From IMG/VR virus record IMGVR_UViG_3300012944_000029, positions 1 to 53,777 of that record: DNA of 53,777 bases; one strand, written 5' to 3'. Positions 3,520 to 53,180 of the stretch are shown here, in pieces. Every line of letters begins with the position of its first letter. The first letter of the stretch is position 1. The notes under the pieces are model-generated. The model did no database searches, was not told the origin of the DNA, and saw only the letters and a list, made by a program, of their open reading frames with translations. The position numbers and the translations under genes are program-made. Source of the DNA: a virus. Taxonomy: Duplodnaviria; Caudoviricetes.

Positions 3520-3765
3520 TTACCGAATCTCAAATCCATAGTGATCACCATTGCCGACCATCATGCTATCATAGTCTTTACGCATCCGGTCAAGCTCCAA
3601 CGCCTCCAGAAGCTCCTTGTTTCCGAGCGGTTTCCAAATGCCAATCGCGTCCCAAATATATCTGTTCCCGGTGTCCTCAGAGTACCATAGGTCTCCAGGC
3701 TGGGCTCCAGTTGATGGCTTTTCACCCTCCAACCCGACAAAGCTTTCTGCTGCTCTTATGCTCAT
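3520..3765 (-). CDS. Hypothetical small virion-associated protein
   Basis: MSIRAAESFVG...PGDLWYSEDTGNRYIWD...W motif, typical of small phage structural domains. Confidence 0.55.
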   Translation of the reverse strand: MSIRAAESFVGLEGEKPSTGAQPGDLWYSEDTGNRYIWDAIGIWKPLGNKELLEALELDRMRKDYDSMMVGNGDHYGFEIR

Positions 3766-3766
3766 T

Positions 3767-4084
3767 TTAATCGGGAACGGCAACCGCGTGAAGTTCTCCG
3801 GTAATTGTGATCAGCGCTGAGTTCAGGATTCTCACCGTAATGGCGCTGGCGGTTTGAGTTTCGATATGAATGATCGACAGCGCCAGGCTGGACCCAGTTG
3901 AGTCTTTGATCGTCAGTGCGCATGTGTAATTGGCATCGGCAAACGGCGTATCCCATGTTACCGTAATCAGCGTCGTGATGCCTGCCAGTAACGCTCCCGT
4001 CGAGACCCGCTTTGCTTGCACCGACAGAATCCCCACGGCCATCGACTTGTTCGCTGGAATATCGCCAAGCAGAGTCGCGGTCAT
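3767..4084 (-). CDS. Tail-fibre-associated small beta-sandwich protein
   Basis: ATG 4084; VTWDTPFADANYT motif, common in fibre tip domains. Confidence 0.55.
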   Translation of the reverse strand: MTATLLGDIPANKSMAVGILSVQAKRVSTGALLAGITTLITVTWDTPFADANYTCALTIKDSTGSSLALSIIHIETQTASAITVRILNSALITITGELHAVAVPD

Positions 4085-4085
4085 G

Positions 4086-5843
4086 TTATGTCCCGAAGAA
4101 TCCTGCACCCGTCATCAGATGGTCCATGATGGCCTTTATGGTTTGAAGCACATTAGTCAGCGTCCCGGTCGAGGTGTCGAATCCAGATTTGGACGCTGTG
4201 CCGGTTGGGAGTGTCCAGCCGGTACTCCTAAAGATCGTCACGAGCTTTGTGTTTTGATCCTGAAAGTTGATGGCTCTCTTGGTCCCGGTGCCAAGCGCAT
4301 CAGTGCTGATCACGATCCCGGTTGCTGAGGCATTGTGCTTAATGGTGAGCCGTTCGTAATTCGAGGCATCTGTCCGCGTCCCATAAAGGCTCCAGCTTTG
4401 GTTGTTTGTGCTGTTGTATTGCTCCAGCCAATTTGCGCTATTGCGGTAAAGGAACAAGTCCGGCGTGGTGGCTCCGCTGCTGCCCCAACAAAGCGGGAGC
4501 GCCGTAGCAATGATGATCTCCCCGGCGTTATCAATTCTCAGTCTTTCAAGCTGACTGACACTTCCGGCTGGGGTGGTGAAAAAACCTAATCTCCCTGGCA
4601 TATCGTTGGCGGCAGGGGTTCCGTCTATATTTACCCTTATCTCAGCAAGTCCTTTAAATGATACTCCATCATAAGCCTGGAAGATCAATCGGAGTTTATC
4701 TCCAGACGAAACAATGGTTGGGGAAGCCTCTGTTCCGTTGGCGCGCTGCCACAGCATTCTGGAATCTACCGAAGCGTCTGCCCCATAAGCTGTCATCCTG
4801 AACGAAGCGTTTTCACCTCCAGAACCCACGATGTGCAGCGTGTTGCCTGCACCCGGCAGCGCCGTGCCAATCCCAACATTGGACCCATTGTCAAAGATTC
4901 TGCTGGTTGCTGTGAGGTATGGCGCGGTTGCACTCCACTTCGGAATGTAATTGGTCGTGCCTGTGATTCCGGTGAGCGCGCCGGAGCCCGTGCCCTGAAC
5001 GATGCCGGTAAGCGTGGTGGTAATGTCTGCCGTGCTGATTGTTTGCCATGATGGGTCGGTGCCATCAGTCCTCCAGTATTTTCCAGCGGTTCCAATGGCG
5101 ACCCTGATATTGTTGCTTGCATCCCGGGTGAGCATGTCACCGCGTGTAGTGAGCGGGCTGAGGTTGTTGAACGCGCCCAGTGCAGTCCCGGAGTTTGTCC
5201 CGCCGCGCGCGATGGCGAGCGTTCCGGACGTGATGGCTGAGGCGTCCAATGCGATCGTGACGTTAGCGGCAAACGCCAGCCGCCCGTAAGCATCCACCGT
5301 GAATTGCCCAACCTGAGTTGCTGAACCGTACGTAGCGGCAGCAACCGCCGTGGTGATGAGATCAATGGTTGGGGTGAGTCCGCCAGAAGATGAGATTCGC
5401 GTTGCCGTGCCAGCGACCGACGTGACGAAAGTGCTATTAGAGATGTCGGCAGAAAGGATGGTTTGCCACGATGGATCGTTCCCGTCACTGCGGACGTACT
5501 TACCGGCAGCCCCGATGCCGAGCCTAATATTATTCCCCGCGCCGTCCCGTGTCAGAAGATCTCCCCTGGTCGTCAACGGCACTGACCCACCCACGATCAC
5601 CGTCGTGTTATTGATGATAGTGGCCGTTGCTTGGCTAAGCCCATCCTCGGTGACGAACCGGTTGGTGATGGACGGTTGCCCCTCGTTTCCCGTAAGTGCA
5701 TCCTGAATGTCCCGAGAAAGCTCGAAGGGCTCAGGGATGACTGGAAGATTCTCCTGAAGCCAATTATCCAACTGCCGCGCCCATGCCTCAATGCCAGGCG
5801 CTTCACGGATCACGTCCCAAGGGACTTCTGGAATGCTGGTCAT
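4086..5843 (-). CDS. Long tail fibre protein
   Basis: Likely start ATG 5843. Gly/Thr/Ala rich; duplicated PLTTRGD-LTRD...DG-DPSWQTI unit; TVDAYGR, GTLAIARGGT, GSNVGIGT and ERLRIDNAG fibre motifs. Confidence 0.85.
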   Translation of the reverse strand: MTSIPEVPWDVIREAPGIEAWARQLDNWLQENLPVIPEPFELSRDIQDALTGNEGQPSITNRFVTEDGLSQATATIINNTTVIVGGSVPLTTRGDLLTRDGAGNNIRLGIGAAGKYVRSDGNDPSWQTILSADISNSTFVTSVAGTATRISSSGGLTPTIDLITTAVAAATYGSATQVGQFTVDAYGRLAFAANVTIALDASAITSGTLAIARGGTNSGTALGAFNNLSPLTTRGDMLTRDASNNIRVAIGTAGKYWRTDGTDPSWQTISTADITTTLTGIVQGTGSGALTGITGTTNYIPKWSATAPYLTATSRIFDNGSNVGIGTALPGAGNTLHIVGSGGENASFRMTAYGADASVDSRMLWQRANGTEASPTIVSSGDKLRLIFQAYDGVSFKGLAEIRVNIDGTPAANDMPGRLGFFTTPAGSVSQLERLRIDNAGEIIIATALPLCWGSSGATTPDLFLYRNSANWLEQYNSTNNQSWSLYGTRTDASNYERLTIKHNASATGIVISTDALGTGTKRAINFQDQNTKLVTIFRSTGWTLPTGTASKSGFDTSTGTLTNVLQTIKAIMDHLMTGAGFFGT

Positions 5844-5846
5844 GCT

Positions 5847-5881
5847 GAAAAGGGCGAGCGTCCTTGCAGGAACGCCCGCCC
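5847..5881 (-). terminator. Intrinsic terminator after the capsid operon
   Basis: GGGCGGGCGT-TCCT-GCA-AGGA-CGCTCGCCC-TTTT; a second hairpin CGCTCCGAA-GAAA-TTCGGAGCG lies at ~5926-5947. Confidence 0.7.
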
Positions 5882-5957
5882 CCCTTATGAACAAACCAAC
5901 GCTGTGAGCTTAACGTTTCAATCCGCGCTCCGAATTTCTTCGGAGCGATTCCACACA

Positions 5958-6391: not shown

Positions 6392-7564
6392 TTAGCTGTC
6401 GCAACGATCGCGCAACGCCATCGGCGCGTCACAACGCAGGTGATTGAATGCCACTCCGCGCTCGGGGTGAACCGGCTGGCTGGCGCTTTCCAGAATCGCC
6501 CGGTGATACATGATCGTCTGGTCCGGGTTGCACACACGGTCAGGGATATTACGCAGCATGAATTTACCCGTGTAATTCACCGGGCTAAACTTGAAGTCCG
6601 GGTGCGGATTCGTGATCGTGTCCGGAATCAAGCTCGTAAACACAGTCGGGTCGAAGATGTATGACACTTCCGACGTGGCCGAATTCCAAGCCGACCGCAC
6701 GATCGCACGATTGCCCTTCGTGGCCGCCTCAATGTCGAACGGAGCAATTTCCGTGTACACGCCACCTGAGCAGGTGTAACGGATGGGGAACTCGTCGATG
6801 ATGTGGTAAAACCCGCGGTAAGTGCCTTCGACGCCATACTGGCCAAGAAGCTCCGAAGGCCGACCCCATCGGAAGTCTTGGCGAATTTCAGGGTCCTGGA
6901 ATATCAAAGCGTCGATCGTTTCCTGAGAAGCAATCAGTGTAAGCACCCCCGCCCCGTTCTGCTTGCCGAGCGCGGACATATTCGCCCCGTTCCGACGCAA
7001 CCTGACACCGTATCGGTTCAGCACGCCCTGGCTGAGCTGGGCTGTGGCGCACGACGCTGGCCACCCTTCTCCGGTCCCTTCGACATTGCCGCTCTGGCGG
7101 ATGACCACCTTAAGGGCCACCAGCCTAAGGTACTCATGCCGATACCTGATTTCCCATTCCAGCTTGGCGTATTCGGAGAGGACGCTGATGATTTTGTCGA
7201 GTTGATCGCGCAGGGCGAACACTGACCGGATTTCCTCCACGCAGAAGTCCGGCCCTTCTAGGGCTCGGCGCTGGAGTTGATATGTGCGATTGGTCGATCC
7301 GATCGCAATCTTCTGTACTGGCGGCAAACATGCGCCCCCTTCCGCGCCGCTTTCCACGGCAACATTCGTCCACGTCGGCACGGCATCGGTCGGGGCGGAG
7401 CGTTCATAAGTGAGATTCGTGAGAATTTCACCCATGCCAGCTTGCCACTGATCCCGGCGCACCAAACCGATCCAAGGCGAGGAGGGGAACACTCGATCAT
7501 AAATCATGGTCGAGAACCGCCCCGTCTCGCGTGCGAGAATGTCAATTATGGCTTGACAGCTTAT
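6392..7564 (-). CDS. Major capsid protein (start ATA 7564 proposed; first ATG at 7507)
   Basis: 371-390 aa with its own strong promoter upstream and a decoration-like gene plus terminator downstream. The frame is open upstream of the ATG to ATA-AGC-TGT, preceded by AAAAGG. Confidence 0.75.
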   Translation of the reverse strand: MSCQAIIDILARETGRFSTMIYDRVFPSSPWIGLVRRDQWQAGMGEILTNLTYERSAPTDAVPTWTNVAVESGAEGGACLPPVQKIAIGSTNRTYQLQRRALEGPDFCVEEIRSVFALRDQLDKIISVLSEYAKLEWEIRYRHEYLRLVALKVVIRQSGNVEGTGEGWPASCATAQLSQGVLNRYGVRLRRNGANMSALGKQNGAGVLTLIASQETIDALIFQDPEIRQDFRWGRPSELLGQYGVEGTYRGFYHIIDEFPIRYTCSGGVYTEIAPFDIEAATKGNRAIVRSAWNSATSEVSYIFDPTVFTSLIPDTITNPHPDFKFSPVNYTGKFMLRNIPDRVCNPDQTIMYHRAILESASQPVHPERGVAFNHLRCDAPMALRDRCDS

Positions 7565-7745
7565 AAGTAAACCTTTTGTTATTAACTATATACAATGAAC
7601 GCCATTAGCGTACAAGGTTGATTGTTGAGAACCGGTTTGAAGTCCGCTGCCAGGGCTTCTAACTACTTGAGCAGCGTGCTGTTTGATCGCGGTGGTAGGG
7701 CATCCACCCGTGGACCCAATTTGTTTTGCGACTCAGCTATTAGCT

Positions 7746-7774
7746 TAACTACTACTGAAGATTAGGTCTGTCAA
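7746..7774 (-). promoter_or_regulatory. Sigma70-like promoter for the capsid operon
   Basis: TTGACA-N17-TAGTTA on the minus strand. Confidence 0.6.
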
Positions 7775-7781
7775 ACAAAAC

Positions 7782-7810
7782 TTGCGCTTGGTCGGGAAAC
7801 AGGCCAATAT
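7782..7810 (+). promoter_or_regulatory. Promoter for the HNH gene, followed by a leader hairpin (7812-7849)
   Basis: TTGCGC-N17-CAATAT; GCATCAGA/TCTGATGC stem closed by GCGGC/GCCGC. Confidence 0.45.
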
Positions 7811-7877
7811 CGCGGCGAGCATCAGAGCTTAAATCTGATGCCCAGCCGCTCAACACAACAATGAAAGGATCATCGTC

Positions 7878-8312
7878 ATGCCTGCCGAACTATTGCCTGA
7901 GAATCAGCCAGAGGGAAGTCCAAAACCGCGTCACTTCAATTACGTCCACGGTCACAGCGTAAACCGCAAGATGTCCAAGACCTACAAGGCTTGGAGGAAC
8001 ATGCTCTCAAGGTGTTACAATCCGAACGATAAATGCTTTAAACATTACGGCGCGAGAGGGATCGGGGTTTGCGAGGAATGGCGTCATTGCTTCGATGCGT
8101 TCCTGACTTATGTCGGAGTGGCCCCAGCCCCGAACATGACCATGGAGAGGAAGGACAATGCCAGAAACTATGAGCCCGGGAATGTAAAATGGGCTGACCG
8201 ATGGGCGCAGGCTGGGAACAAACGGAACAATAGAATGGTCACGGTTCTCGGCGAGACTGGTCATTTCGCCAAGCCAATCCGTGGTTTAAGACGACCAGAG
8301 ATTAAACCGTAG
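7878..8312 (+). CDS. Free-standing HNH homing endonuclease (C-terminally short)
   Basis: YKAWRNMLSRCYNP...YGARGIGVCEEW...ERKDNARNYEPGNVKWA...NKRNN signature; opposite strand to its neighbours. Confidence 0.85.
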   Translation: MPAELLPENQPEGSPKPRHFNYVHGHSVNRKMSKTYKAWRNMLSRCYNPNDKCFKHYGARGIGVCEEWRHCFDAFLTYVGVAPAPNMTMERKDNARNYEPGNVKWADRWAQAGNKRNNRMVTVLGETGHFAKPIRGLRRPEIKP

Positions 8313-8317
8313 TCCCG

Positions 8318-9109
8318 TCAACCAGGAATCGACCAGACCAAAGATTTGATGCTCGATTCGATCAGAGCTTTTGTTCCCCCGAACTGCAAAAATTGCCGAA
8401 GGTCCTTGGCCGGTGGAACGTAAGTAACTGTTGGGACGCCAAGGCGCATGGAGATTTTCTCCGCCCCATTCAACCCCGGTGCATCGTTGTCCGCCACGAT
8501 TACGGCTTGCTGAATATGCAGGCGTTTGAACGCGAGGCGTATCTCATTCTCGCCACAATTGCAGCTTGGCCGGCCAACAGCCCAGAATCCGAGCGTCAAC
8601 GCCGCGGCACAATCAGTGGGTCCTTCGCAAACCAGCGCTGTGCAGTTGCTCTGGGTATGCGGCAGGAAGATGCCTTGACGCGAACCCGTCACAGCCCATT
8701 TTCGGCCATTGTCGGCCCGCAACCGGATGCCGCAGGGATTTCCCCATTCATCACGCATCGGGAAGGCCCAGGCGTGATGAGGCGCAGCCCATGCGGCGGT
8801 CATTGCTTCCAAGGATTCGATCGAGACGCCAAGACTCGACGCCAAGTCTTCGATCGCATCCCGAGGCGTGTCCATGGCGAATTGTTCCATGAGGAACGTT
8901 GCGTTGATTTTTGGAGGCTCAGGCTTGGGGGGTGTCAGGTTGACTGGAGCGTGATCGCCGTTGAGTGGATGCAGCCACCCGCCATTGTGGACTTCTTTCT
9001 CCGATTGAACGCGCATGCAATTTACGAACTTCTGGCCGATCGCGCACCAGTCTGGACGACCGCAAACGGGACACGGGTTATGCTTAGTAACTTTGATCCA
9101 TGGAGTCAT
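8318..9109 (-). CDS. DNA primase (Zn-binding + TOPRIM)
   Basis: CPVCGRPDWC...C zinc finger; VCEGPTD and IVADND TOPRIM motifs. Confidence 0.85.
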   Translation of the reverse strand: MTPWIKVTKHNPCPVCGRPDWCAIGQKFVNCMRVQSEKEVHNGGWLHPLNGDHAPVNLTPPKPEPPKINATFLMEQFAMDTPRDAIEDLASSLGVSIESLEAMTAAWAAPHHAWAFPMRDEWGNPCGIRLRADNGRKWAVTGSRQGIFLPHTQSNCTALVCEGPTDCAAALTLGFWAVGRPSCNCGENEIRLAFKRLHIQQAVIVADNDAPGLNGAEKISMRLGVPTVTYVPPAKDLRQFLQFGGTKALIESSIKSLVWSIPG

Positions 9110-9368
9110 CATCGTCATCAAGGAAACCATTGGCTTCCATTCGGTCTATCATCCGATCGCAGGCGTCGGAGTCCGCCTGAAGAATCCACTCATCCCAAGA
9201 AGATCCCCACGTTTGGGTGTACCCAAAAATTCGAGACAAACCAGATTCCTCCCAATGTTTAGCGAAAGCCTCGTAGTGTGCCTCCACTTGCTCCACGTTC
9301 GGGATAAAATATAGAAGTATTGTTGGTTCCAGCGGCTTCGGATTTGCTCGGTATTCTTCTTCAGTCAT
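9084..9368 (-). CDS. Hypothetical acidic protein
   Basis: Fills the gap between helicase and primase; ATG 9368. Confidence 0.5.
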   Translation of the reverse strand: MTEEEYRANPKPLEPTILLYFIPNVEQVEAHYEAFAKHWEESGLSRIFGYTQTWGSSWDEWILQADSDACDRMIDRMEANGFLDDDDDSMDQSY

Positions 9369-9378
9369 CTGTTGCCTT

Positions 9379-11016
9379 TCATTTCCATTTTCGGCTGAGT
9401 TTCCCGATAATCGCTCCAGCCTGACCTTTCGACATTTTGTCAGGATTGATTCCGTGCCTTCGGAGCAGGTCTTTCTGAGGTCCGGTGGCAGGGACTTTTC
9501 CAGAAGACGACGGCATAGGTTTCGCCGCGCTCTTTGAAAATCCATCGAAAGCATCGACTGAATGGATGGAATAATTCGTGCGAGGCACTAAATGAGACCG
9601 CTTTGCCGCTTCCTGGAGTCTCACTTGCTCTGCTTTCTTGAGTCTCTCTTGTTCCAGTGCGATTTCGGCTTTATCCAAAGTCCGCGAAACACGGACAGGT
9701 TTCCCTTCTTCCTGAGCTTTTTTGATAGCGAATGCCCTCGCCTCATCGCTGACTTTACCGCCCAGAATATCCATGCAAGTTACCAGCTTGTGTTTGCCGC
9801 TGTTTCCGACGAAGTCTATTATTCGGCAGAACGGTTTGGCGCTGGCCGCAATCGCCGACAGCCGTTTCTCTGGCGTGTCCAAGTCTGGTCCGTCCACGAC
9901 GCCGGGCAGCGGCCTTGTCGAGCGCCCGACCATCTGCTGATAAAGAGCGGCGCTTTTCGTCGGCTTGGCCATGATGATGACCTCTACGCCGGGGTCGTCG
10001 AATCCCTCGGTGAATACAGCACAGTTCATTACGACACGCGTTTCGCCATTGAAAAAGCGTTCCAATGTCTGTTTCCGTTTGTCTTTGTTCGTTTCCCCGC
10101 AGACCCACTCAGCCATCCCAGGAAAGACACGATTGAAGATATTACAGCAAAGCTCCGCATGCAGGACCGATGCTGTAAATACTATCGCTCTACGCGGAAG
10201 GCGGTTTAGCGCTCTCAAGTAATCTCTCCATTGAGGAACCGGAGTGGAATCGAGTGTATGCGGAGGCAACGCGAATAGCACTTCGAGAGACGGCTGGCAT
10301 ACGCCAACAATGTTGGACTCAGCTTCCATCACAGCGGCAAGATCTCCACTGTTGAGATCCCCTGATGTTGTCCTGATATGTGAATAATCTAATCCGGCCA
10401 CACTCGCAAATTGTTGAGTGATGTCGCAAAGCCAACCATCCTGAATCCCGGTCAGGATGGGGTAATCCGCAGCGACGCTGGTGAACACTTGTCCGAGTGA
10501 TTCCTTGTCGAACCGGGTGGGCGTCGCGGTACACCCCATGATTCGCAAGTCGGGGTTCTGCTGGAAATAATTGATCACATCTCGGTAACTTTTCGAGGTT
10601 GCGTGATGGGCTTCGTCGATAATCAGCACGCCGAAGTCTTCCGGCTTGAACTTGCTCATGCGTTTCCGACCACGATATCCGGCGTTCAAAGTCTGAACTG
10701 TAGCAATAACGACAGGGAAGTTATTGTCGAATCCGTTCAGGGCATGATCCATGGATACGCTTTCGCCTGCCATTTCGATGCCGCATTCGAGTCCGGTTGT
10801 GGCTGTAATCTTGATGAATGGCTGCCGAACCAATTCTTCTCGGTGAGCAATAACCAACGCACGTTTAGGCTGCATCTTTGCGATAACATCGGCAAAGATT
10901 ATGGTTTTGCCTCCACCTGTGTACAGCACCAGCAGTGTTGACTTCTCGGTGGCCCATTCCGCTCTAATCTTTTCAGAACATGTGACCTGATAATCCCGAA
11001 GCTGGAACGGATTCAT
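9379..11016 (-). CDS. SF2 DEAH-box helicase
   Basis: LRDYQ, TGGGKT, IIDEAHH, TAT, TEGFD and QMVGRSTR motifs. Confidence 0.95.
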   Translation of the reverse strand: MNPFQLRDYQVTCSEKIRAEWATEKSTLLVLYTGGGKTIIFADVIAKMQPKRALVIAHREELVRQPFIKITATTGLECGIEMAGESVSMDHALNGFDNNFPVVIATVQTLNAGYRGRKRMSKFKPEDFGVLIIDEAHHATSKSYRDVINYFQQNPDLRIMGCTATPTRFDKESLGQVFTSVAADYPILTGIQDGWLCDITQQFASVAGLDYSHIRTTSGDLNSGDLAAVMEAESNIVGVCQPSLEVLFALPPHTLDSTPVPQWRDYLRALNRLPRRAIVFTASVLHAELCCNIFNRVFPGMAEWVCGETNKDKRKQTLERFFNGETRVVMNCAVFTEGFDDPGVEVIIMAKPTKSAALYQQMVGRSTRPLPGVVDGPDLDTPEKRLSAIAASAKPFCRIIDFVGNSGKHKLVTCMDILGGKVSDEARAFAIKKAQEEGKPVRVSRTLDKAEIALEQERLKKAEQVRLQEAAKRSHLVPRTNYSIHSVDAFDGFSKSAAKPMPSSSGKVPATGPQKDLLRRHGINPDKMSKGQAGAIIGKLSRKWK

Positions 11017-15934: not shown

Positions 15935-16585
15935 ATGCCCAATGAAGTCTTGCCTGTCGGTTCTGTTTTTTCCAGATTAAAAGTCATCTCGGCTGCCCCG
16001 CCCATGGTATATCCGAGTGGCCAAGTCGGGGCCAGGAGCGTTTGCGTGTGCGATTGCGGAAAGGAACACATCGTGACAAATAACAACCTCAAACGGGGTG
16101 CTGTTCGTTCATGCGGGTGCCTAGGAGTTGAAATGAGGCAGAAGTCCAATTTTAAACATGGACATTCTAGGGGTGGCCATGTTTCCAAAGCTATGAGGGT
16201 TTGGCGCCATATGATTGAGCGTTGTTGCAATCCCCATTCCATCAATTTCGAGCGTTATGGAGCCAGGGGAATTACGGTCTGTGATCGTTGGAAGGTGTTC
16301 ACTAATTGGCTTGAAGATATGGGAGAGCCTCCCGATGGGCTTACCTTGGAGAGAATCAAGAATGACGGCAACTATGAACCCGCAAACGTGAAGTGGGATA
16401 CGATTAAAAATCAATGCCGGAATAAGCGTAACAATGTCATGGTCACCATTGGTGGAGTTACCACTACGCTGATTGAGATTTGCGAACGATTTGGAAAGCC
16501 TATTTCCCTCGCAAGGAAGAGACTGAGGAAAGGATGGCCCGCTGATCGAGCCATTTTCGAAAAGAGTCGGAGAGATCATCATTGA
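15935..16585 (+). CDS. Free-standing HNH homing endonuclease
   Basis: CVCDCG...SCGC, WRHMIERC, YGARGITVCDRW, LERIKNDGNYEPANVKW, RNKRNN and a C-terminal HTH-like segment. Confidence 0.9.
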   Translation: MPNEVLPVGSVFSRLKVISAAPPMVYPSGQVGARSVCVCDCGKEHIVTNNNLKRGAVRSCGCLGVEMRQKSNFKHGHSRGGHVSKAMRVWRHMIERCCNPHSINFERYGARGITVCDRWKVFTNWLEDMGEPPDGLTLERIKNDGNYEPANVKWDTIKNQCRNKRNNVMVTIGGVTTTLIEICERFGKPISLARKRLRKGWPADRAIFEKSRRDHH

Positions 16586-17379
16586 ACACGATCCACGAGA
16601 CACTCCTCATCCACGAAAGGGAAGTAATCCTTCAGCTTCACGGGGAACTTCGTGACGTTTTGAAGTGCACGCCATTTGTCCACGAGCCCGGTGTAAAGAT
16701 GGCCCTTGGGGTTATTGTGGCTGCCGTAATATTCCTGCTTGAATCTCACCTGAGCCTCTGTGGCGTAGGCGAAATGGTCGAATACGATGCCTTCCGATTC
16801 CGTCTCGGCATGCGTGAATGGATTCAGCGTCAATCCATCAATGACCGGTGGCTCATGTCTTTCAAAGCGCATACCCGGGACAAAGCGCCAGGCTCTCAAC
16901 CACTCGTACTCAGTGTGGTTACCAAAGCCGTTGCGCGTGGCAATAACGAGATCGCGTCCGACGAAATAGCGACAGTAAAAGTACGCGGAGTTCTTCGATC
17001 TGTCGCGCTGAAACATCGCCACCAACGCCTCAATCTGCTCAGCGGTCCAACACTCGTCACTATCGACTTGGAGGAGAATTGTGGGTTCATAAATTGTCTC
17101 CAGAATTCGGTTGAACATGGCCGCTTTCCCTGGCCATTCGGATCGCCTGAACACATGCACACGCGAGTCGAAAGCACGCACGGAATCCAGGTATTCTGTC
17201 GTGCCGTCCTGAGACAGGCGCGGGGCCATCTTCGAGACCCATGATGTGTCCAACACAGGCGCGGCGACACCTTCCGCCACGAGCCATTCCCAGTCGCTCT
17301 TGAGCTTGCGAAATTCTGGGTAATGGAGCGTCACGAAGGGCATGGCGTCGAGGGCGATCGTTACGATGGTGATTTTCAT
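16579..17379 (-). CDS. GT2-like glycosyltransferase
   Basis: MKITIVTIALDAMPF start; SQDGT; LLQVDSDECW DxD; HEP and HFAY motifs. Confidence 0.8.
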   Translation of the reverse strand: MKITIVTIALDAMPFVTLHYPEFRKLKSDWEWLVAEGVAAPVLDTSWVSKMAPRLSQDGTTEYLDSVRAFDSRVHVFRRSEWPGKAAMFNRILETIYEPTILLQVDSDECWTAEQIEALVAMFQRDRSKNSAYFYCRYFVGRDLVIATRNGFGNHTEYEWLRAWRFVPGMRFERHEPPVIDGLTLNPFTHAETESEGIVFDHFAYATEAQVRFKQEYYGSHNNPKGHLYTGLVDKWRALQNVTKFPVKLKDYFPFVDEECLVDRVQ

Positions 17380-18041
17380 TCAAGAATTTCCCAATGCCGT
17401 CTGAGCTTTGTAGGTTCCCTGCCACCCGGACGCGCGTACTTGTGGAACACGAGTCGTTTAGCATTCACCTTCGACATCAGGTCCACAAGTGAAAGAAAAG
17501 CGCTGTCGATGCAATGAATTTCCGTGGCGTTCTCAATGACCGCACACCAGTCGAAAATCGTCGCGGACTTATGGGCGAAGACCGCAGGAATATCCGGCAA
17601 CTTTTCAGGGTCGATAAAAAAACATCGTGTGCGATCATCGTGCACAAATACGTAGGGATAATCCAGCGTCTTAACTTCCCTATGCGGATCACGCACGACA
17701 TGAAACCCCTCCCACCGAAGCTCAGGCCGAAGGCCTGCCATGCGGTATAGATCGGTGTCCCAATGATCAATGTCGAAGCCCTCGCCGTGAAGGCCGAGCC
17801 TCAAGGTCTTGAGCTTATGCTTGTCCCGGCCTTCGGCAATATCGCGAGCCTGCTGATCGTCGTCCACGGGGATGATCTGGATTCTCGGATCGTCACGGAA
17901 TTGGAAATTCACGCTCGGCACATTTCTGTGTTTAACGGGAACGAAGACGTTGAAGTCCTTGGCGAAGTGCCGGACAAGTGAGTTGCAGATGAGCGCATCT
18001 CCGAGACCGCCGTGCCACAAAATGTAAAGGCTTTCACTCAT
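17376..18041 (-). CDS. GT-B-like (GT9-related) glycosyltransferase
   Basis: HGGLGDALIC N-terminal motif; IHCIDSAFLSL C-terminal motif. Confidence 0.65.
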   Translation of the reverse strand: MSESLYILWHGGLGDALICNSLVRHFAKDFNVFVPVKHRNVPSVNFQFRDDPRIQIIPVDDDQQARDIAEGRDKHKLKTLRLGLHGEGFDIDHWDTDLYRMAGLRPELRWEGFHVVRDPHREVKTLDYPYVFVHDDRTRCFFIDPEKLPDIPAVFAHKSATIFDWCAVIENATEIHCIDSAFLSLVDLMSKVNAKRLVFHKYARPGGREPTKLRRHWEILE

Positions 18042-18700
18042 GTCGTGAGAAAGTTTATGCGCTTCTGCCAATCGTAACCATTCGGCTCATCGTCCTGACT
18101 GAACCTCTCACCAATGAACCGAAAATCCCCCATCTTGGCCGGGAACGGACGCGCCCCCGTCCATTGGCCGCAGAAATCGTGCTGGAGGCAGTCGCCCTTG
18201 ATCATTGGCCACACCTTTTCCCAAAGGAACCGCTGATCATCCATGTACTCTCGGCTCTCCACATTAACGTCCTTCATCAGCGTCAGCATGCTCGGGATAG
18301 CACCCTTCACGGCACCCCACATGCCGCCCATCATGGGGTGTTTGTGCCCAGGATGGTCCCGAATCACGTGCGCGCTCTTGCCGGACTCGATCCATTCCTG
18401 CACGGCCTTGGCTTCGCGCTCGTTCAGGCGGGAATCAGCGTCACGGACGATATAGCGGTCCACGTCAGGAATATCATTCACGAGGAAGCGCGTGAACATC
18501 GTGACGCGTTCAAGTGGCATTTTGAGGTCGCAAGAGTCCCGAAGCGCGTTAAGGGTTTTGCGAGGCACGTCACGGTCAGCCCAGACGATCACGTCCCAGC
18601 CGGGATAAATGACCGGGGCAAGCTCGACGTTGGCCAGAGCGCCACTCAGGTAAACGGGGTCCTTTCCGTATATGCTCATTGACACGACTGACCGGTTCAT
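18038..18700 (-). CDS. Putative glycosyltransferase
   Basis: IVRDADSRL DxD, HVIRDHPGH, MGGMWG and DDQ-FL motifs; cluster context. Confidence 0.6.
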   Translation of the reverse strand: MNRSVVSMSIYGKDPVYLSGALANVELAPVIYPGWDVIVWADRDVPRKTLNALRDSCDLKMPLERVTMFTRFLVNDIPDVDRYIVRDADSRLNEREAKAVQEWIESGKSAHVIRDHPGHKHPMMGGMWGAVKGAIPSMLTLMKDVNVESREYMDDQRFLWEKVWPMIKGDCLQHDFCGQWTGARPFPAKMGDFRFIGERFSQDDEPNGYDWQKRINFLTT

Positions 18701-18706
18701 AGACGT

Positions 18707-18925
18707 TTAATCAATCCGCAAGCGGTTCGCGAAAACCGAGCACCGCGCAAACAAAAGCGAGGTTCTGTTTACAATTATCCGCGGTAAAGGGATCACATTC
18801 GGAATGTGGTTGAAGCAGGCCGCGTTAGAAAAGAGCTTCAGGGTTACCCTCTTTTCCTCCTGGCAACAGGGGAGAAAGGGGCGTTCTGATCTTGGGCTGT
18901 CTTTTCCCCTTCTTGTCGTTCTCAT
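18707..18925 (+). ncRNA. Structured non-coding element, copy A (paralogue of 51121-51471)
   Basis: Hairpin-dense intergenic gap sharing nine ordered motifs with the 51-kb gap. Confidence 0.55.
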
Positions 18926-20484
18926 GGCGGGGCGACCAGCGGGTAATCGTATCCTCTCGCCTTGCACCATTCCTTGGCGAGATTCATGTTCCATTGCTTG
19001 GCCGGATTGTCATTGGGCGTCTCGCGCCATTTCCGTGAGTGCGGCTCATGCAACACATATCCGAGTGGCAATTCCGCGCCGGGTATGGTAGTGAGAATAT
19101 TATGGTACGTCGTCCGAATCCCGATGGACTCCCGAATCATGAGCGTCATCACAATATCCCACTCCTGTTCGCCCAGAAGAAAATCAGGAATGCTCGCCCA
19201 GTTGGACCGGATCCATTCCGGCCTGAAAGCGAACAGGTCACGCCCGAGATCGCTTTTGTAACGCCGCGCCAGTTCCTCTGGACTTTCTGCTAGATCAGGC
19301 CTGACGCCCGCGACGAAGTTCAGCCTGAAAGATGATACCGCGCCCATCTGCCCATTCACGGCATGAAGCAGGTCCACGATTTTGGGGTGCAGCACCGTGT
19401 CGTCATTGGTCAAGACGATCCAGTCGTTGTCCTGAGCGATAGTCAGTCCCTCCACGAGCACGTCCTTCAGGTATGTCAATTTTCGGTCATCCCCGATCAG
19501 ACCAGAGTGCCTGTCAGGGTGCCACACATGCACCGGTCGCGCAGCACCGCTCTTGTAAAGCGGTATCCATGAATCGAATGCGTGCATCACGCGCCCGTAC
19601 GATTCGTCACTTACGTGCCGCTCTACGACATGAACCAGTTTGGCTTGGGACGTTTTCCAGATGGCCCTGGGCGGGTCGGCATATACCGTTTCGGTCCTGG
19701 TCCGAATGGGAAACAAATCAGAAATCACCTTGCCAGCCTTCTGAATCATGGTCTGGCCGGTGGCCACAGTTGCCTTGGCAATTTTGGTGGCCACACTGGC
19801 CCGCTTCTCCCGGAGTCGATCGATCAGCGTGCCATCCTTGCACCGATGGAACACAACCGCGTCAGGGCTGACGATGTACTCGACAGATTGCCACGTTGGG
19901 AATGTCGGCGGTTTACCGCTCACTTGCCACACATGCTGCATGAAATGATTGGCTGAATGAGTGAGTGTCGGGACGATCTCCGCACCGGCGACGCGGTCCC
20001 AAGGCGCTTGCCGGCAGAACAAAGCGTTTGAACTGTAATCGCAGACGTTCCACGGCAGGACGCACGCGCCATTGATATGCTCGCCGGGCGGCACGAGGTT
20101 GCCGGTGAACAATTTTGCACCGCGTTTATGCTCATCCTCAATCTCAGTGATCCATCCAGGCTTCAACGGCACGACATCAGACTCCCACCAATACCATGAG
20201 TCCCTGAGATTGGCGTGCACGTAGCGGGCCGCAGCTTGCCAAGCCCAATTCTGTGGTTCAGGCCATTTGGTGTTTCCCTCGAAGGCATCGTATTCAAGTG
20301 TCTTGACGGTCCTGAAATAGTCATTGGCCAAACTCCTGATCATGGCCTTGGGAGCTTCGGACATGCCTCTCTCGCACGAGAGCAACGCGGCGAACGGGAC
20401 ATCGCCATCAAGCTCAATGGCCCATTCTAGGTTACGTATTTGGCGGTCCACGTCACCGTCGAAGAATGGCACTACGACAAGCAT
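18922..20484 (-). CDS. Two-domain glycosyltransferase-like protein
   Basis: MLVVVPF start; WWESDVV and LTNDDTVL acidic motifs in two halves; cluster context. Confidence 0.55.
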   Translation of the reverse strand: MLVVVPFFDGDVDRQIRNLEWAIELDGDVPFAALLSCERGMSEAPKAMIRSLANDYFRTVKTLEYDAFEGNTKWPEPQNWAWQAAARYVHANLRDSWYWWESDVVPLKPGWITEIEDEHKRGAKLFTGNLVPPGEHINGACVLPWNVCDYSSNALFCRQAPWDRVAGAEIVPTLTHSANHFMQHVWQVSGKPPTFPTWQSVEYIVSPDAVVFHRCKDGTLIDRLREKRASVATKIAKATVATGQTMIQKAGKVISDLFPIRTRTETVYADPPRAIWKTSQAKLVHVVERHVSDESYGRVMHAFDSWIPLYKSGAARPVHVWHPDRHSGLIGDDRKLTYLKDVLVEGLTIAQDNDWIVLTNDDTVLHPKIVDLLHAVNGQMGAVSSFRLNFVAGVRPDLAESPEELARRYKSDLGRDLFAFRPEWIRSNWASIPDFLLGEQEWDIVMTLMIRESIGIRTTYHNILTTIPGAELPLGYVLHEPHSRKWRETPNDNPAKQWNMNLAKEWCKARGYDYPLVAPP

Positions 20485-35078: not shown

Positions 35079-35609
35079 TTTCCAGGCAGTACATGCGAAT
35101 TCCCGCCCATCTACCAAGATGTGGCACGGCACCTAAAACGTCCGTGGAGAAAACATATACAGCCGCCGGCCAATGCGCGCCTCAACAACGCGGGGGCCAC
35201 CAAAATGAATACCCCAGCCTGGCGCCATACCCATTGGCCCCGTCAGGCAAGTAGTTCTGGTGCGACCAATTACGGTCCGTTTGTAGGACCACGGCGGGAT
35301 CAATCGCCTCTGACGCTGGAAAAGTAAAGCCTCCGTCACGGCGGCGTGTCGGGTTCTCTGGCCTCCTCTGTCCGATCATTGGCTCCGTCCCTCAGCATCC
35401 CACGCACTCCCTTGCTGACTTCGGACTCCCTTACCCTCCCATAAAACCGGTAATTTATTTTTTCACAACGCATCATTATCCAGAAACCTCTTAGACCATG
35501 TTCCGGAATTAAGATTTATTTTTTCATACGGTGTATAGCGATACCCCCACCCCCGAAAAGGGTCATAGCCCTGGTGGCCGTGGAAAAGTCCAGGTCAGGA
35601 AGGGAATGC

Positions 35610-36197
35610 TTATTCTTGGGACGCTGCGTCCTGTGGGGGTGAATTCTGTGCGTAATCTGTGCGCTGCGTGTCAAACCCTTGAAAACATTGAGGTTTTACA
35701 GGGTCAGTGGTAGGTATGATACCTACTTGGTCGATGACCTTGGCTCCTCCAGGGTTACCCCGGAGGGTGTGCAGGGCCATCGGGCCGCCGGCGCGACCGT
35801 GATCCTGAGCGTCCAGCCCGAGGGTAGTCCTCATCACGGAGACGACATTCTTCCAGGACGCAATCAACTGGGCTTGCGCTGCTGGATTACGGTTCTCTTT
35901 CATGGACCGTTGATGCTGAATGTCTTCCATCCATGCTTCAGATTCACGCATGCAGCGATCGAGGAACCTCAGGACATGGACTGAGCTGACCGTAGCTACA
36001 GCCTGGGCGTTCTGGGACGCCTTGGCGACGGAGTCAATTGATTGCTGATTGACAATGAGCGACCATTTCTCATTGTGGGCGCGACGGGCGACAGTAGCGT
36101 GCTTGACATTGAAGCGTTTGGCGAGGGAACGCATTGAGCCCTCGCGATTTAGGTAAGCGAGTTTGAGAGCGGAGAGATCAACTCTGATGCCTGGCAT
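35610..36197 (-). CDS. Terminase small subunit (putative)
   Basis: N-terminal HTH SMRSLAKRFNVKHATVARRAHNEKW, helical core, R-TLGLD; leaderless promoter TTGACC-N17-CATATT. Confidence 0.65.
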   Translation of the reverse strand: MPGIRVDLSALKLAYLNREGSMRSLAKRFNVKHATVARRAHNEKWSLIVNQQSIDSVAKASQNAQAVATVSSVHVLRFLDRCMRESEAWMEDIQHQRSMKENRNPAAQAQLIASWKNVVSVMRTTLGLDAQDHGRAGGPMALHTLRGNPGGAKVIDQVGIIPTTDPVKPQCFQGFDTQRTDYAQNSPPQDAASQE

Positions 36198-50275: not shown

Positions 50276-51076
50276 CTATTTATCCAGCTTATACGTGTCA
50301 ATCACGTCCCCGTCAACGCTGAGCGCTCTGAAGCTCAGTCTGTTTTGGGAGGCGACGATCTTGATTGCTCCAAATTTCGCATTGTATCTGACGACACTTG
50401 ATCCAATCGGCGTTCCGAAGCCACGTAAACTCTCACCACTAAAACCGCCCACAAAATAAGGAAAGGTACCCACAACAAGTCGCTCATAAGCATGTCCATG
50501 CCCTGACATTACCACATCGGCGCTCCACAAAGCGAATGGCCATTGCATCCAGACGCTTGAGCCGTGTGTAACGTCGCTCGAGTACGGTGGGTGATGACAG
50601 ACGACAATCTTCCATGGCGCGGTGCTCTGGCTCAGGGCCGTTTGCAGCCATTGGCCTTGAGCGGAGCTTGAGGTTGTTCCATCGGGCTCCCGGGGATCGC
50701 TGTCGAGCATGAACAACTCCACTGGCCCGAGGCGTTGACGGTAGTATCTCGCACCGTTGACGATGGTGAAAAAGGTGAGATAATCCGCCAGGTTATTGGT
50801 GTCCCAATCGTGATTGCCGGGAGCTGGGTAAAATGCCGACCGCGCAATCCACTCAGAATAGTTCGCATTAACGTCCGTAGCATAATTTCCATTGTACGAA
50901 TTGTCCCCGAGCGTGATGATCAGGTTTGGATTGTCCGCGTCGAGGAGCGCCTTGACCGCCGCTTCGTCACTGCCCCCGTCGCCATAATCGCCAATGGCCC
51001 AAAGCGACAGCTCGGAATTGTCGTAAGCCAAAGAGTCAGGCGGACAGCAGGAGATGGTCGGGCAGGTTGCGCTCAT
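50276..51076 (-). CDS. Calcineurin-like metallophosphoesterase (purple-acid-phosphatase type)
   Basis: GDYG, LGDNSY, GNHD, HHPPY and GHGH-YER metal-ligand motifs. Confidence 0.92.
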   Translation of the reverse strand: MSATCPTISCCPPDSLAYDNSELSLWAIGDYGDGGSDEAAVKALLDADNPNLIITLGDNSYNGNYATDVNANYSEWIARSAFYPAPGNHDWDTNNLADYLTFFTIVNGARYYRQRLGPVELFMLDSDPREPDGTTSSSAQGQWLQTALSQSTAPWKIVVCHHPPYSSDVTHGSSVWMQWPFALWSADVVMSGHGHAYERLVVGTFPYFVGGFSGESLRGFGTPIGSSVVRYNAKFGAIKIVASQNRLSFRALSVDGDVIDTYKLDK

Positions 51077-51087
51077 TGAAAATCCGT

Positions 51088-51117
51088 TTGACGGCTAAGG
51101 GCCGGATTGATTATCTT
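51088..51117 (+). promoter_or_regulatory. Promoter pointing into the structured non-coding element
   Basis: TTGACG-N18-TATCTT. Confidence 0.5.
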
Positions 51118-51120
51118 CAT

Positions 51121-51471
51121 CTTCGTCAATTAGTGTTGATGCGAACGTGCCCGAGCCGGAACCTGGCAACCCCGGTTCACACCCTGCCAAGGGTGAACAC
51201 TAAGGGCACGCCAATTTTAGTTTTCATCTCATCAATTGCCAGTCAATCGACTGGTCTGTTCGATCCCGAGCACAGATCAAAAAGTTAGGGTTTGAATGTC
51301 GCCTGCGATTAAACGCAAGGTAAATGCCAGAGGCAGACACGCCGGGGGCGACTCATTAAGTTCCTCGCGGGGGGTACCCCATTGTTGCGCCGCCTTTCTC
51401 GGATTCGGGGAAAGGGGGATAAAGGGGGTTTGGGGTTCTGAGCCGTTGTCCCCTGCTTTTTTCTTTCTCAT
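51121..51471 (+). ncRNA. Structured non-coding element, copy B (~350 nt)
   Basis: Upstream promoter, continuous hairpins and multiloops, G-tracts and a terminal T-run; paralogous to 18707-18925. Confidence 0.6.
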
Positions 51472-53180
51472 GCGGTGATCTGCGTTGGTTTCTCCTGGAG
51501 GCTTGCGAACAGTTTCATAAACTTCACCCGGCAAAAGCCTGTCATGGCCAAACGCACCTGATATTCGTAAGCGTCCCTGCTAAGCTTGGTCTGGCCAGAC
51601 TCGCAGGCGATCGGTGGCTGGCCAATCTCAATCTCTGGCCGATATTGCTCCGTCCAATTCTGGAGCGTCATACAATCGGTTGTCGCTTCGCAGTTGTCGA
51701 TCGAGCCGCACTCGGTCCACTTCGCCCAATCTACCCAGCACGGGTATTGGTCCGGCTTCCATTTGAGGTCAAAGTCCACTTCCCCAGCCACCCGGTCAAT
51801 GAAGAGTGTCAATCCCTGGAGGCGCTTACGCAACGTCGTGGCGAACGAGTAGGACCCCGTCTCGAAACTCCATGTGACGCGGTTCCGTCCATTGTCGAAA
51901 CGTTCATTGCGGGTCTGCTCCCAAAGCTCGATCTGATTCTGAGGGTTCAGCACGAACATGAAACAGCGCTCCTGACCGCTGATGGTGCACTTGAGAATCT
52001 GGAGGATGTTGAGCCCAGTCCACATGCCTTCCCAAACGGGTGGAGATTTCCCCGCCATTGTCGAGAGAATATCAAAATCGAGCACACCAAGCGCCTTGTG
52101 AATGACACCATGCTCGGTCCAATACGGCTTGGCTGTCATCAGCAAGCGATTGTCGAATAGCACCGCGCTAGACCAGTTCAGGAGCGTCTGATCATCGTCA
52201 TCAAACACGCGGACAGCTTCGCCCGAGACCGGCGTGTTGCCCCAGGTCGTAAAATCACGTCTCGCCATGATCAAACTGCACACGCCAACGTTCGACCGGA
52301 AAAACATATCACCATTGACGAGAATCAGAGAGTTTTGCGACAGCGCGCCGTACTGCAGGAGCACGACCGTCTGAATCGGCGTCGTGAGATTCTTCCAAGT
52401 CGTCCGATCTGTCGGGGCCAGGTTGGTGAACATTGTGCCCGCAGTGGACACAACAATGTCGCCTTGGCCAAGAGACGTGTCGGGAATGGCAATCACGTTC
52501 ATTGCGTTGATGTCCCCGGAACTGTCCGGGACACCAAAGGCACCGCCTTCATTCAGGAACGTGTTCTCTGTCACTTTAAGCACAGCGTCACGCCGACCCA
52601 GTGACGGAGTGCCTGACGGCCCACCAAAGATGTCGCCAGCCATATAGTGCCGACCTTTGGAAAGCCACACGCGGCCTTTGGCGTAAACCATCTGGCGGCC
52701 AACTGGAAGTTCTCCAGTCAGCGCCGCCGTCCGCATAGCCGCGCCGTTGTAGATGCGGGGCTTGGACTCGTCATCCTGCATGATGAGCCAATCCTCAGCC
52801 TGCTCGAACCAGACCTGGCGGCGGGGCGATGTCAGGCCGACCGTGATTTCCTTGACGAGATTATTCGTTGAAACATTGATGCGCCATTGCCGCCCATTGA
52901 TGGACGCCACGAGCACCGGGAGTCCGTTCGGTGGATTGTACGCGCGCGCGCCTTGAAAGAATCCGTCTTGAAACGGGGCTAAAGCGTCGTCACCGGAAAA
53001 GGTGATCGGAACACGCTTCTGTCCCGGACGCCCATAAGCGAAGCCGTTGCGGACCGTGCCATTCGTGAGGAAAGCGAGTTGGTTCTTACTGATCAGCGAG
53101 ACACGGCCCGGCCGGCTGTCGATGCCACGCTCAAGGGTGGAGAACCCGTCTGTATGATAATCACGATCCCTGGCTGACAC
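51468..53180 (-). CDS. Tail nozzle / DNA stabilisation protein (P22 gp10 / T7 gp12-like)
   Basis: 570 aa beta-propeller-like sequence; N-terminal L-NG...RPG motif; position in the tail operon. Confidence 0.7.
   Translation of the reverse strand: MSARDRDYHTDGFSTLERGIDSRPGRVSLISKNQLAFLTNGTVRNGFAYGRPGQKRVPITFSGDDALAPFQDGFFQGARAYNPPNGLPVLVASINGRQWRINVSTNNLVKEITVGLTSPRRQVWFEQAEDWLIMQDDESKPRIYNGAAMRTAALTGELPVGRQMVYAKGRVWLSKGRHYMAGDIFGGPSGTPSLGRRDAVLKVTENTFLNEGGAFGVPDSSGDINAMNVIAIPDTSLGQGDIVVSTAGTMFTNLAPTDRTTWKNLTTPIQTVVLLQYGALSQNSLILVNGDMFFRSNVGVCSLIMARRDFTTWGNTPVSGEAVRVFDDDDQTLLNWSSAVLFDNRLLMTAKPYWTEHGVIHKALGVLDFDILSTMAGKSPPVWEGMWTGLNILQILKCTISGQERCFMFVLNPQNQIELWEQTRNERFDNGRNRVTWSFETGSYSFATTLRKRLQGLTLFIDRVAGEVDFDLKWKPDQYPCWVDWAKWTECGSIDNCEATTDCMTLQNWTEQYRPEIEIGQPPIACESGQTKLSRDAYEYQVRLAMTGFCRVKFMKLFASLQEKPTQITA

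Follow-up and report, generated by a model that had tools for sequence, protein, structure and literature searches.

Phage lambda OOP is a cis-antisense small RNA that has its own promoter and terminator and lies between or at the ends of protein genes, and ColE1 RNA II is a folded replication primer in which a G-rich segment could stabilise the RNA–DNA hybrid. Among small phage DNA elements, PeSLs are much smaller than the element described here and occur in many copies, and MPMEs carry a small open reading frame (ORF). Here we analyse a 391-nt non-coding gap in the late-gene block of an uncultivated tailed phage (Duplodnaviria; Caudoviricetes; IMG/VR record IMGVR_UViG_3300012944_000029), which needs explaining because tailed-phage genomes are tightly packed. 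The window, by which we mean the whole stretch analysed, is the complete virus record of 53,777 bases; its first 123 bases are identical to its last 123 (a terminal repeat), which leaves about 53.65 kb without the repeat. The gap holds an insert, copy B, made up of a core with a diverged paralogue elsewhere in the genome (copy A) and of a module present in copy B only. An initial annotation had read the region as one folded RNA of ~350 nt, antisense to the tail operon and plausibly a replication primer like RNA II. We tentatively favour a different explanation, in which two non-coding pieces of DNA, rather than one RNA gene, were inserted successively at a single ATGA(G) stop/start junction.

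For the described DNA elements we draw on parts of three published accounts. PeSLs are composite promoter/terminator cassettes of T4-type phages (PMC4122927). In the parts used here, they are like the present element in being short repeated non-coding cassettes at phage gene boundaries that combine promoter-like sequence with a stem-loop, and in being tied to gene gain and loss (PMC4122927), copy B adjoining an accessory phosphoesterase gene that most relatives lack. The locus differs from them in its two copies of 221–235 nt, its unique 151-nt module and the absence of a promoter consensus common to the copies. It also differs in that a relative, L103, has the accessory gene without the element, which argues that the element did not bring in the phosphoesterase gene.

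The mycobacteriophage elements MPME1 and MPME2, 439 bp in length, carry inverted repeats (IR-L) and bring in 6 additional bp when they insert, as described in PMC3029335. Like the present element they are ultra-small insertions that part of a phage group carries and close relatives lack, with sites defined by comparison (PMC3029335); unlike them, it has neither inverted repeats nor a conserved ORF, its junction repeats are 4–5 bp and its copies are highly diverged. MITEs (miniature inverted-repeat transposable elements) of prokaryotic and viral genomes are defined, in the part of the source used, by terminal inverted repeats of at least 10–15 bp (PMC11602168). They too are small, non-coding and intergenic, have short direct repeats at their junctions and are rare in viruses (PMC11602168). 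Terminal inverted repeats of the required length are absent in both copies, which excludes this class, and a search with one pattern found no copies in 185,579 species genomes. As far as these partial sources go, the element resembles in kind the small insertion elements and repeated regulatory cassettes of other phages (PMC3029335, PMC4122927, PMC11602168).

As for the two RNAs, the hypothesised plus-strand RNA of the gap shares with ColE1 RNA II a fold with a G-rich segment, but there is no sequence or family match and no origin evidence here, and the locus looks like a lineage-specific insertion in a late-gene block. The candidate small RNA gene, like that of OOP, is antisense and lies between protein genes, whereas the candidate RNA (about 51124–51225) overlaps no coding region and has no conspicuous complementarity to a target. 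Should the copy-B-only module be expressed as a small RNA, it would provide a new phage regulatory RNA without an Rfam relative, beside an accessory phosphoesterase gene. If the core is mobile, it would illustrate how stop/start overlaps can admit non-coding DNA to phage operons harmlessly. What is described is a well-delimited candidate in an uncultivated phage, with two sequences for comparison, and its value is mainly as a target for follow-up.

Comparison with relatives supports two insertions

The gap was compared with 80 IMG/VR loci that encode relatives of p570, the protein whose gene lies upstream of the gap in the gene sense, at 39–47% identity. A homologue of p232 lies downstream of p570 in 80/80 relatives, within ~300 nt in 78, and 0/80 have a phosphoesterase gene after p570 or a comparable gap. 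The p570 junction has the form stop-N-ATG in 65/80, and the next long ORF is at most 2 nt from the p570 stop in 62/80. Five of the other 18 loci end too early to judge, and the largest spacing in the remaining 13 is 194 nt. The spacings of L025 and L026, the two that were read through, hold a small conserved ORF. A conserved ORF of ~44 codons (MNWSYI...SYTIPTS), ~140 nt past the p570 homologue, fills the p570–p232 spacing in L024–L028, L033, L035 and L038, and is unrelated to the element.

In the more distant relative L103, a phosphoesterase gene separates p570 from p232, and its start overlaps the stop of p570 (TGATG) with no gap. The 391 nt therefore appear to have entered the p570/phosphoesterase junction independently of the phosphoesterase gene. 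The nearest relatives at the protein level, with 73–75% identity, are P0002 and P0196 (homologues of p570 and the phosphoesterase that share a 5267-nt contig) and P0123 (from a contig of 3218 nt). At the copy A site, p220 and p231 come after p520 in 4/4 full-length relatives, and p520 and p220 abut or overlap in 3. Copies A and B have the same orientation relative to the operon. On these comparisons, the reading of the gap as a lineage-specific insertion, and of both copies as insertions, is well supported.

The core has a diverged paralogue

A Smith–Waterman scan located copy A, and global alignment confirmed it; its divergence puts it beyond the reach of an ordinary repeat search or blastn (E ≤ 10) within the window, both of which missed it. 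Alignment of 18701–18930 with 51230–51476 gave a score of 122, compared with 69.2 ± 7.8 for 500 dinucleotide shuffles (0/500 reaching 122) and with a maximum of 93 in 1072 other genome windows. The copies are identical at 130/211 aligned bases (~62%). Conservation is not uniform but falls into blocks: TCAATC, GTTCG..CCGAGCAC, ATTA..CGC..GGTAAA, AAAGGGG..GTTCTGA and TTCTCATG. Exact matches to CCGAGCAC occur in the two copies only, AAAGGGG..GTTCTGA has 2 matches with 0 expected, and an nhmmer profile of the copy pair matches just these two places in the window. Comparison of the flanking genes excluded their paralogy (E 0.34 and 0.99). Judged by alignment, the paralogy of the core with copy A is well supported.

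The 9-mer CCTGGCAAC occurs at 18859–18867, in the apical part of the copy A pyrimidine/purine hairpin, and at 51162–51170, in the large loop of the copy B three-way junction; ~0.3 such shared 9-mers are expected by chance. Complement-like partners of it are found at 51236 (TTGCCAG) and 51324 (ATGCCAG).

Stop/start overlaps bound both copies

On the gene strand, the junctions of copy A read CCATGAGAAC upstream and GTCTATGAACCG downstream, and those of copy B read GCATGAGAAA upstream and TTCAATGAGCGC downstream. In both copies the repeated ATGA(G) holds the TGA stop of the upstream gene and the ATG start of the downstream one, with ATGA flanking copy A and ATGAG flanking both modules of copy B. 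Because each copy is bounded by ATGA(G), both the upstream stop and the downstream start survive. The internal ATGAG of copy B lies 22 nt past hairpin H1 (described below), and in copy A an ATGA lies 21 nt past H1. Since homology to copy A stops at the internal ATGAG, we read copy B as a core and a separate 151-nt module stacked at one ATGAG (Table 1).

CTCAT, the plus-strand form of ATGAG, is found 4 times in the gap, where ~0.4 would be expected, and 53 times in the whole window. A fourth gene-strand ATGAG, at 51352–51356, lies about midway in the copy B core and has no counterpart in copy A. For comparison with MITEs, whose target-site duplications are 2–10 bp long, the ATGA(G) repeats at the junctions measure 4–5 bp; such repeats could equally arise from selection that preserves the stop and start codons. 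No terminal inverted repeats were found, the best end-to-end complement being 5 nt in copy A (992/1000 shuffles as good) and 8/9 nt in copy B (117/1000).

Table 1. Features of the two copies and of the genes that flank them
Feature	Position	Strand	Description
Whole non-coding gap	51077–51467		391 nt, between minus-strand p570 and metallophosphoesterase (ORF map)
Core of copy B	51233–51467	plus	235 nt, diverged paralogue of 18701–18921
Copy A	18701–18921	plus	221-nt non-coding insertion between p520 and p220
Copy-B-only module	51077–51227	plus	151 nt; promoter-like sites on both strands, 5' hairpin, three-way junction, U-rich tract
Upstream ATGAG	51467–51471	minus	Its TGA is the p570 stop codon
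Internal ATGAG	51228–51232	minus	Boundary of core and copy-B-only module; homology to copy A ends here
Downstream ATGAG	51072–51076	minus	Its ATG is the phosphoesterase start
Sigma-70-like promoter match	51088–51117	plus	TTGACG-18 nt-TATCTT; 9/12 positions, weak
7-bp hairpin CGUCAAU/GUUGAUG	51124–51141	plus	Predicted 5' end of RNA
Three-way junction	51146–51210	plus	7-bp closing stem; 7-bp hairpin with 12-nt loop containing UGGCA; 5–6-bp hairpin with loop containing UGCCA
U-rich tract AUUUUAGUUUU	51214–51224	plus	3 nt past junction closing stem; terminator-like on plus strand only
Hairpin H1, copy B	51255–51276		Outer stem UCUGU/ACAGA, GC bulge, invariant inner stem UCG/CGA
Hairpin H1, copy A	18722–18746		Outer stem GCGGU/ACCGC; inner stem and bulge as in copy B
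Pyrimidine/purine hairpin CCUUUCUC/GGGAAAGG, copy B	51393–51415	plus	−16.4 kcal/mol, z −2.16; minus strand z −0.89
Pyrimidine/purine hairpin, copy A	18848–18881	plus	−20.6 kcal/mol, z −2.71; minus strand −18, z −3.04
G-quadruplex motif	51407–51435	plus	GGGG-AAA-GGGGG-AUAAA-GGGGG-UUU-GGGG
T-run	51455–51466	plus	3' end of core; minus strand is start of orphan ORF
Orphan frame, copy B	51280–51471	minus	64 codons, starts at ATGA overlap; called as gene in source annotation
Orphan frame, copy A	18710–18925	minus	72 codons, equivalent place; called in source annotation
p570	51468–53180	minus	570-aa conserved phage protein, function unassigned; upstream of copy B (gene sense)
Calcineurin-like metallophosphoesterase	50276–51076	minus	266 aa, PF00149 E 4.5e-16; accessory gene, downstream of copy B (gene sense)
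p232	49575–50273		Gene whose homologue follows p570 in relatives
p520	18922–20484	minus	Flanks copy A upstream (gene sense)
p220	18038–18700	minus	Flanks copy A downstream (gene sense)

The copy-B-only module looks like a small RNA gene

The copy-B-only module has no counterpart in copy A, and the significant, strand-specific fold of the gap is confined to it. Region 51120–51228 folds at −38.8 kcal/mol on the plus strand (z-score −2.96, 2/200 shuffles as good) and reaches z −0.75 on the minus strand. The three-way junction on its own gives −33.4 kcal/mol, z −4.66 and 64% of the ensemble on the plus strand, with 0/200 shuffles as good, compared with z −1.97 on the minus strand, where one G-U pair of the junction turns into C-A. 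It was the minimum-free-energy fold in all windows tried. By our own estimate, made after the fact, the perfect 5-nt complement between its loops (UGGCA/UGCCA) has a chance probability of ~2%.

Because a weak promoter match, a 7-bp hairpin, the three-way junction and a U-rich tract follow one another, the module looks like a candidate small RNA gene of ~100 nt (about 51124–51225) on the plus strand. Such an RNA would run antisense to the operon and diverge from the phosphoesterase gene, with an overlapping promoter-like site on the minus strand, and it need not extend into the core. Promoter-like sites number 4 in 2.5 kb, against 1.7 ± 1.3 expected, and 3 of them are in the gap, on both strands; the consensus used, −35 and −10 hexamers spaced by 16–18 nt, is that of sigma-70, which may not be the host's. 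The minus-strand matches are at 51139–51110, overlapping the region of the plus-strand candidate RNA, and at 51242–51214. The terminator scan scored nothing at 51214–51224; it takes simple hairpins with 3–8-nt loops and cannot score the branched structures that precede the two U-rich tracts of copy B. The 12-nt loop has 6 matches with at most 2 mismatches in the genome (4.7 expected), so that no trans target stands out.

A tRNA- or tmRNA-like identity, considered since the closing stem of the junction is followed by CCA, was rejected: ARAGORN found 0 in the window under standard and 0 under relaxed settings, and its permissive mitochondrial mode gave scattered hits everywhere.

The core carries a conserved hairpin and no significant overall fold

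The fold of the copy B core is no better than that of shuffles (plus strand z −1.16, 24/200; minus strand z −0.45), and the same applies to copy A (z −1.13 plus, −0.74 minus). The whole gap does slightly better than its shuffles on the plus strand (z −1.86, 3/100), but not on the minus strand (z +0.35). The minimum-energy folds of the two copies differ, the conserved block ATTA..CGC..GGTAAA being within a hairpin in copy B and not in copy A.

Hairpin H1 is paired in 15/15 cells across the two copies, compared with 27–47% in slid controls. One compensatory double change was counted, and a second, U-A versus G-C in the outermost pair, escaped the count owing to a gap in the alignment and was recognised in the sequence itself. 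R1, a covariance model of H1, matches just the two copies. With two sequences, these changes are suggestive at most of conservation as a hairpin, which could form on either strand or in DNA. An origin as an IS200/IS605-derived palindrome-associated element was rejected, there being one conserved hairpin (H1) per copy and no Y1 transposase (PF01797) match in the phage.

Both copies also have a pyrimidine/purine hairpin (Table 1). The G-quadruplex motif of the copy B core is the sole G3+N1–7 x4 motif on either strand of the 53.8-kb record, and copy A has no canonical G-quadruplex. The T-run at the 3' end of the core was not scored as a terminator by the scan, with its limit to simple hairpins and 3–8-nt loops.

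All motifs to which the initial annotation had pointed are present: TTGACG-18 nt-TATCTT, the CGTGCCC/GGGCACG stem (51146–51152/51204–51210) that closes GAGCCGG/CCGGTTC and CACCC(T)/(A)GGGTG, the TGGCA and TGCCA loops, CCAGTC/GACTGG, GTCGCC/GGCGAC and the T-run. What it called a kissing-loop domain held up as the stable three-way junction, and its description of a non-coding region, antisense to the flanking genes, with predicted structure favouring the plus strand is supported. Its promoter exists as sequence but matches at 9/12 positions among sites whose number is given above, and its T-rich end is a T-run without a scored terminator. The 'shared 213-nt core' corresponds to a real paralogue, although the copies measure 221 and 235 nt and have diverged as described. 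The GTCGCC/GGCGAC multiloop (51298–51303/51347–51352) appears in some folding windows, but other pairings replace it in another, and the fold of the core as a whole is not significant. A single RNA of ~350 nt does not fit a gap whose two modules split at the internal ATGAG, whose left module has its own U-rich tract and whose core has no significant or consensus fold (RNAalifold z −1.46). Nor does the term 'tail operon' fit both copies, because the surroundings of copy A include no recognisable tail module.

Searches for related elements

Against Rfam 15, the whole window gave 0 matches at the gathering score; at E ≤ 10, region 50900–51600 gave 4 junk hits of 11.8–18.9 bits, with thresholds of 39–65.5. 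Blastn of the element found no relative among phage records and no match in 72,556 plasmid records. Three patterns were searched in IMG/VR virus contigs: two gave 12 and 3 stretches, all attributable to chance by blastn or alignment score, and the junction pattern gave 0. One 22-base pattern gave 16 chance stretches in the 185,579 GTDB species genomes, none of them similar by nhmmer, and 21 stretches in JGI metagenomes, with a best nhmmer E of 4.4. In metagenome contig L121 this pattern occurs on both strands, at 3658–3819 (+) and 1284–1445 (−), which suggests an inverted duplication; the contig has no nhmmer similarity to the element.

An nhmmer profile run over the 80 relative loci did not find the element. 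In 12 whole relative records, BLAST and covariance model R1 each found 0/12, an empty answer that shows little. The RNA of a retron or diversity-generating retroelement was rejected as a class, the record having no PF00078 match.

Two proposed successive insertions and the competing explanations

Under the explanation that we tentatively favour, the core of 221–235 nt would be a duplicative intergenic element, either selfish or spread by recombination like the promoter/terminator cassettes of T4-type phages, and would persist because it lands in stop/start overlaps. The conserved blocks and H1 would be its selected parts, possibly a protein-binding hairpin. The 151-nt copy-B-only module would be a separate unit that encodes a small plus-strand RNA of ~100 nt or acts as a regulatory cassette. 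The likeliest role would be local regulation, for example insulation of the downstream accessory gene or control through antisense or divergent transcription. Priming of DNA replication by the element is unlikely.

Several observations weigh against this explanation. The mobility of the element rests on two insertions with 4–5-bp junction repeats, which selection for intact flanking genes could mimic, and there are no terminal inverted repeats and no Y1-type transposase. A third copy was found neither with the window profile nor with R1 nor among the relatives. For the small RNA gene, the promoter match is weak and neither of the U/T-rich tracts was scored by the terminator scan; the fold windows were picked after the structure had been seen, which inflates the z-scores. 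For the core, RNAalifold on the copy pair gave −24.0 on the plus strand, compared with −18.3 ± 3.9 for column shuffles (z −1.46, 19/200), and z +0.06 on the minus strand; its plus-strand advantage may merely reflect G+T richness. Covariation from two sequences has almost no power, and the shuffle control for H1 was uninformative (238/500). Copy A, finally, has no promoter-like or terminator-like site on either strand.

It is possible, though not likely, that the insertions act in the sense of the operon, on the minus strand, as intercistronic regulators that uncouple the genes. A C-rich untranslated stretch and a G-quadruplex on the template would slow or stop transcription, by Rho-dependent termination or as a roadblock, and an internal promoter would restart it. 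Relatives couple these genes tightly (stop-N-ATG or ATGA), so that any insertion alters coupling, and the two minus-strand promoter-like sites (51139–51110 and 51242–51214) could supply the restart. The highest messenger-sense C/G ratio of copy B, 2.16 over a 78-nt window, ranks at the 99.3rd percentile genome-wide, and the operon's template strand carries the one G-quadruplex motif in the genome. However, C-richness in copy A peaks (1.81, 97.6th percentile) at a non-homologous position, and copy A is without an intrinsic terminator or promoter consensus on either strand and without a canonical G-quadruplex. Minus-strand folds are also no better than shuffles, local hairpins excepted. Support for a Rho site is weak.

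We consider it unlikely that both copies lack a function today and are relics, neutral or in decay, of small genes or of an old selfish insertion. The existence of just two copies that are ~62% identical points to an old duplication, no homologue turned up in any collection searched, and the core has no significant fold, all as expected of such remains. Useless DNA of 221–391 nt should nevertheless be lost from tightly packed phage genomes, in which relatives have 0–2 nt at these junctions; the blocky conservation suggests selection on parts, and the three-way junction seems too stable for an accident.

A bolder version of the insertion hypothesis seems improbable to us. The two inserts would then belong to an undescribed kind of phage insertion element without transposase, inverted repeats or ORF, which homes to ATGA overlaps and rebuilds both codons, and which carries strand-specific RNA structure (the bulged hairpin, the G-quadruplex and, in copy B, the small RNA with the three-way junction) antisense to late genes.

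The source gene caller called a frame in each copy, and both frames begin at an ATGA overlap, as would small genes for proteins of 64 and 72 aa on the minus strand that are translationally coupled via ATGA. In addition, indels in the first ~33 codons are multiples of three when placed by eye, and some relatives have small ORFs after p570. We nevertheless regard this explanation as very doubtful. BLASTP between the two frames gives E 0.53, and all three minus-strand frames score alike between the copies (52, 42 and 42). Further along, the DNA blocks that the copies share differ in frame, that of H1 being within the frame of copy A and outside that of copy B, and mismatches are mostly at second codon positions (by eye). 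Among 1.84 billion representative proteins the 64-aa frame finds just itself, and Pfam and PHROG have no family for any frame in the copies. Protein-coding readings, including read-through of the TGA stop, were rejected for lack of a conserved frame and of homologues, and sequence comparison thus supports the view that both copies are non-coding.

Barely credible, finally, is a scheme like that of ColE1 RNA II, in which one ~350-nt transcript of the plus strand would form a persistent R-loop and serve as the replication primer: plus-strand G-clusters including the four-run G-quadruplex motif, predicted folding that favours the plus strand and the lack of an encoded family A or B DNA polymerase (as the initial annotation had said) or reverse transcriptase speak for it, but the resemblance comes down to the G-runs, plasmid records and Rfam families show no similarity (the Rfam scan that the annotation had proposed as a check gave no family match), the insertion is recent and absent from all relatives examined, which replicate without it, copy A has no promoter, G-quadruplex or extra domain, the U-rich tract past the junction would stop the RNA at ~100 nt, and the claim that no clear initiator is encoded was overstated, with primase-like and helicase genes adjoining another 370-nt non-coding region, 7508–7877.

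Genome setting and neighbouring genes

The phage is sparsely annotated. Recognisable products include a tail-fibre-like protein (4086–5894), an HNH endonuclease, a DNA methyltransferase, Erf and an exonuclease. For replication there are a helicase gene (9379–11016) and a weak primase-like match (8318–9130); no family A or B DNA polymerase is encoded in the record, and a reverse transcriptase (PF00078) gave no match in it.

The 370-nt region at 7508–7877 lies between the minus-strand gene 6392–7507 and the lone plus-strand HNH endonuclease gene 7878–8312. Because it adjoins the primase-like and helicase genes (8318–11016), it is likelier than the studied gap to be an origin or early control region. 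A 282-nt gap at 35328–35609 contains two direct repeats resembling GAAAAAATAAAT as well as minus-strand G-rich runs, and adjoins a weak match to a terminase small subunit (35610–36197). The neighbourhood of copy A consists of glycosyltransferase-like genes, with a GT2 match at 16579–17379 and PF01075 or PF04041 in some homologues of p520.

Of the genes that flank copy B, p570 has 877 homologues at E ≤ 0.001 (8000 candidates scored) and no family in Pfam or PHROG. The N-terminus of the phosphoesterase (MSATC...) is conserved among its homologues. A motif M..C....CC......Y is N-terminal in phage metallophosphoesterases (50276–51076; P0196, P0197, P0198, P0203 and P0207) and not in bacterial homologues, and this N-terminal motif may be a virion-attachment module. 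In relative L014, a small ORF after p570 (4713–4790) has a similar motif (MNECENVLSCCSPDMFAY...).

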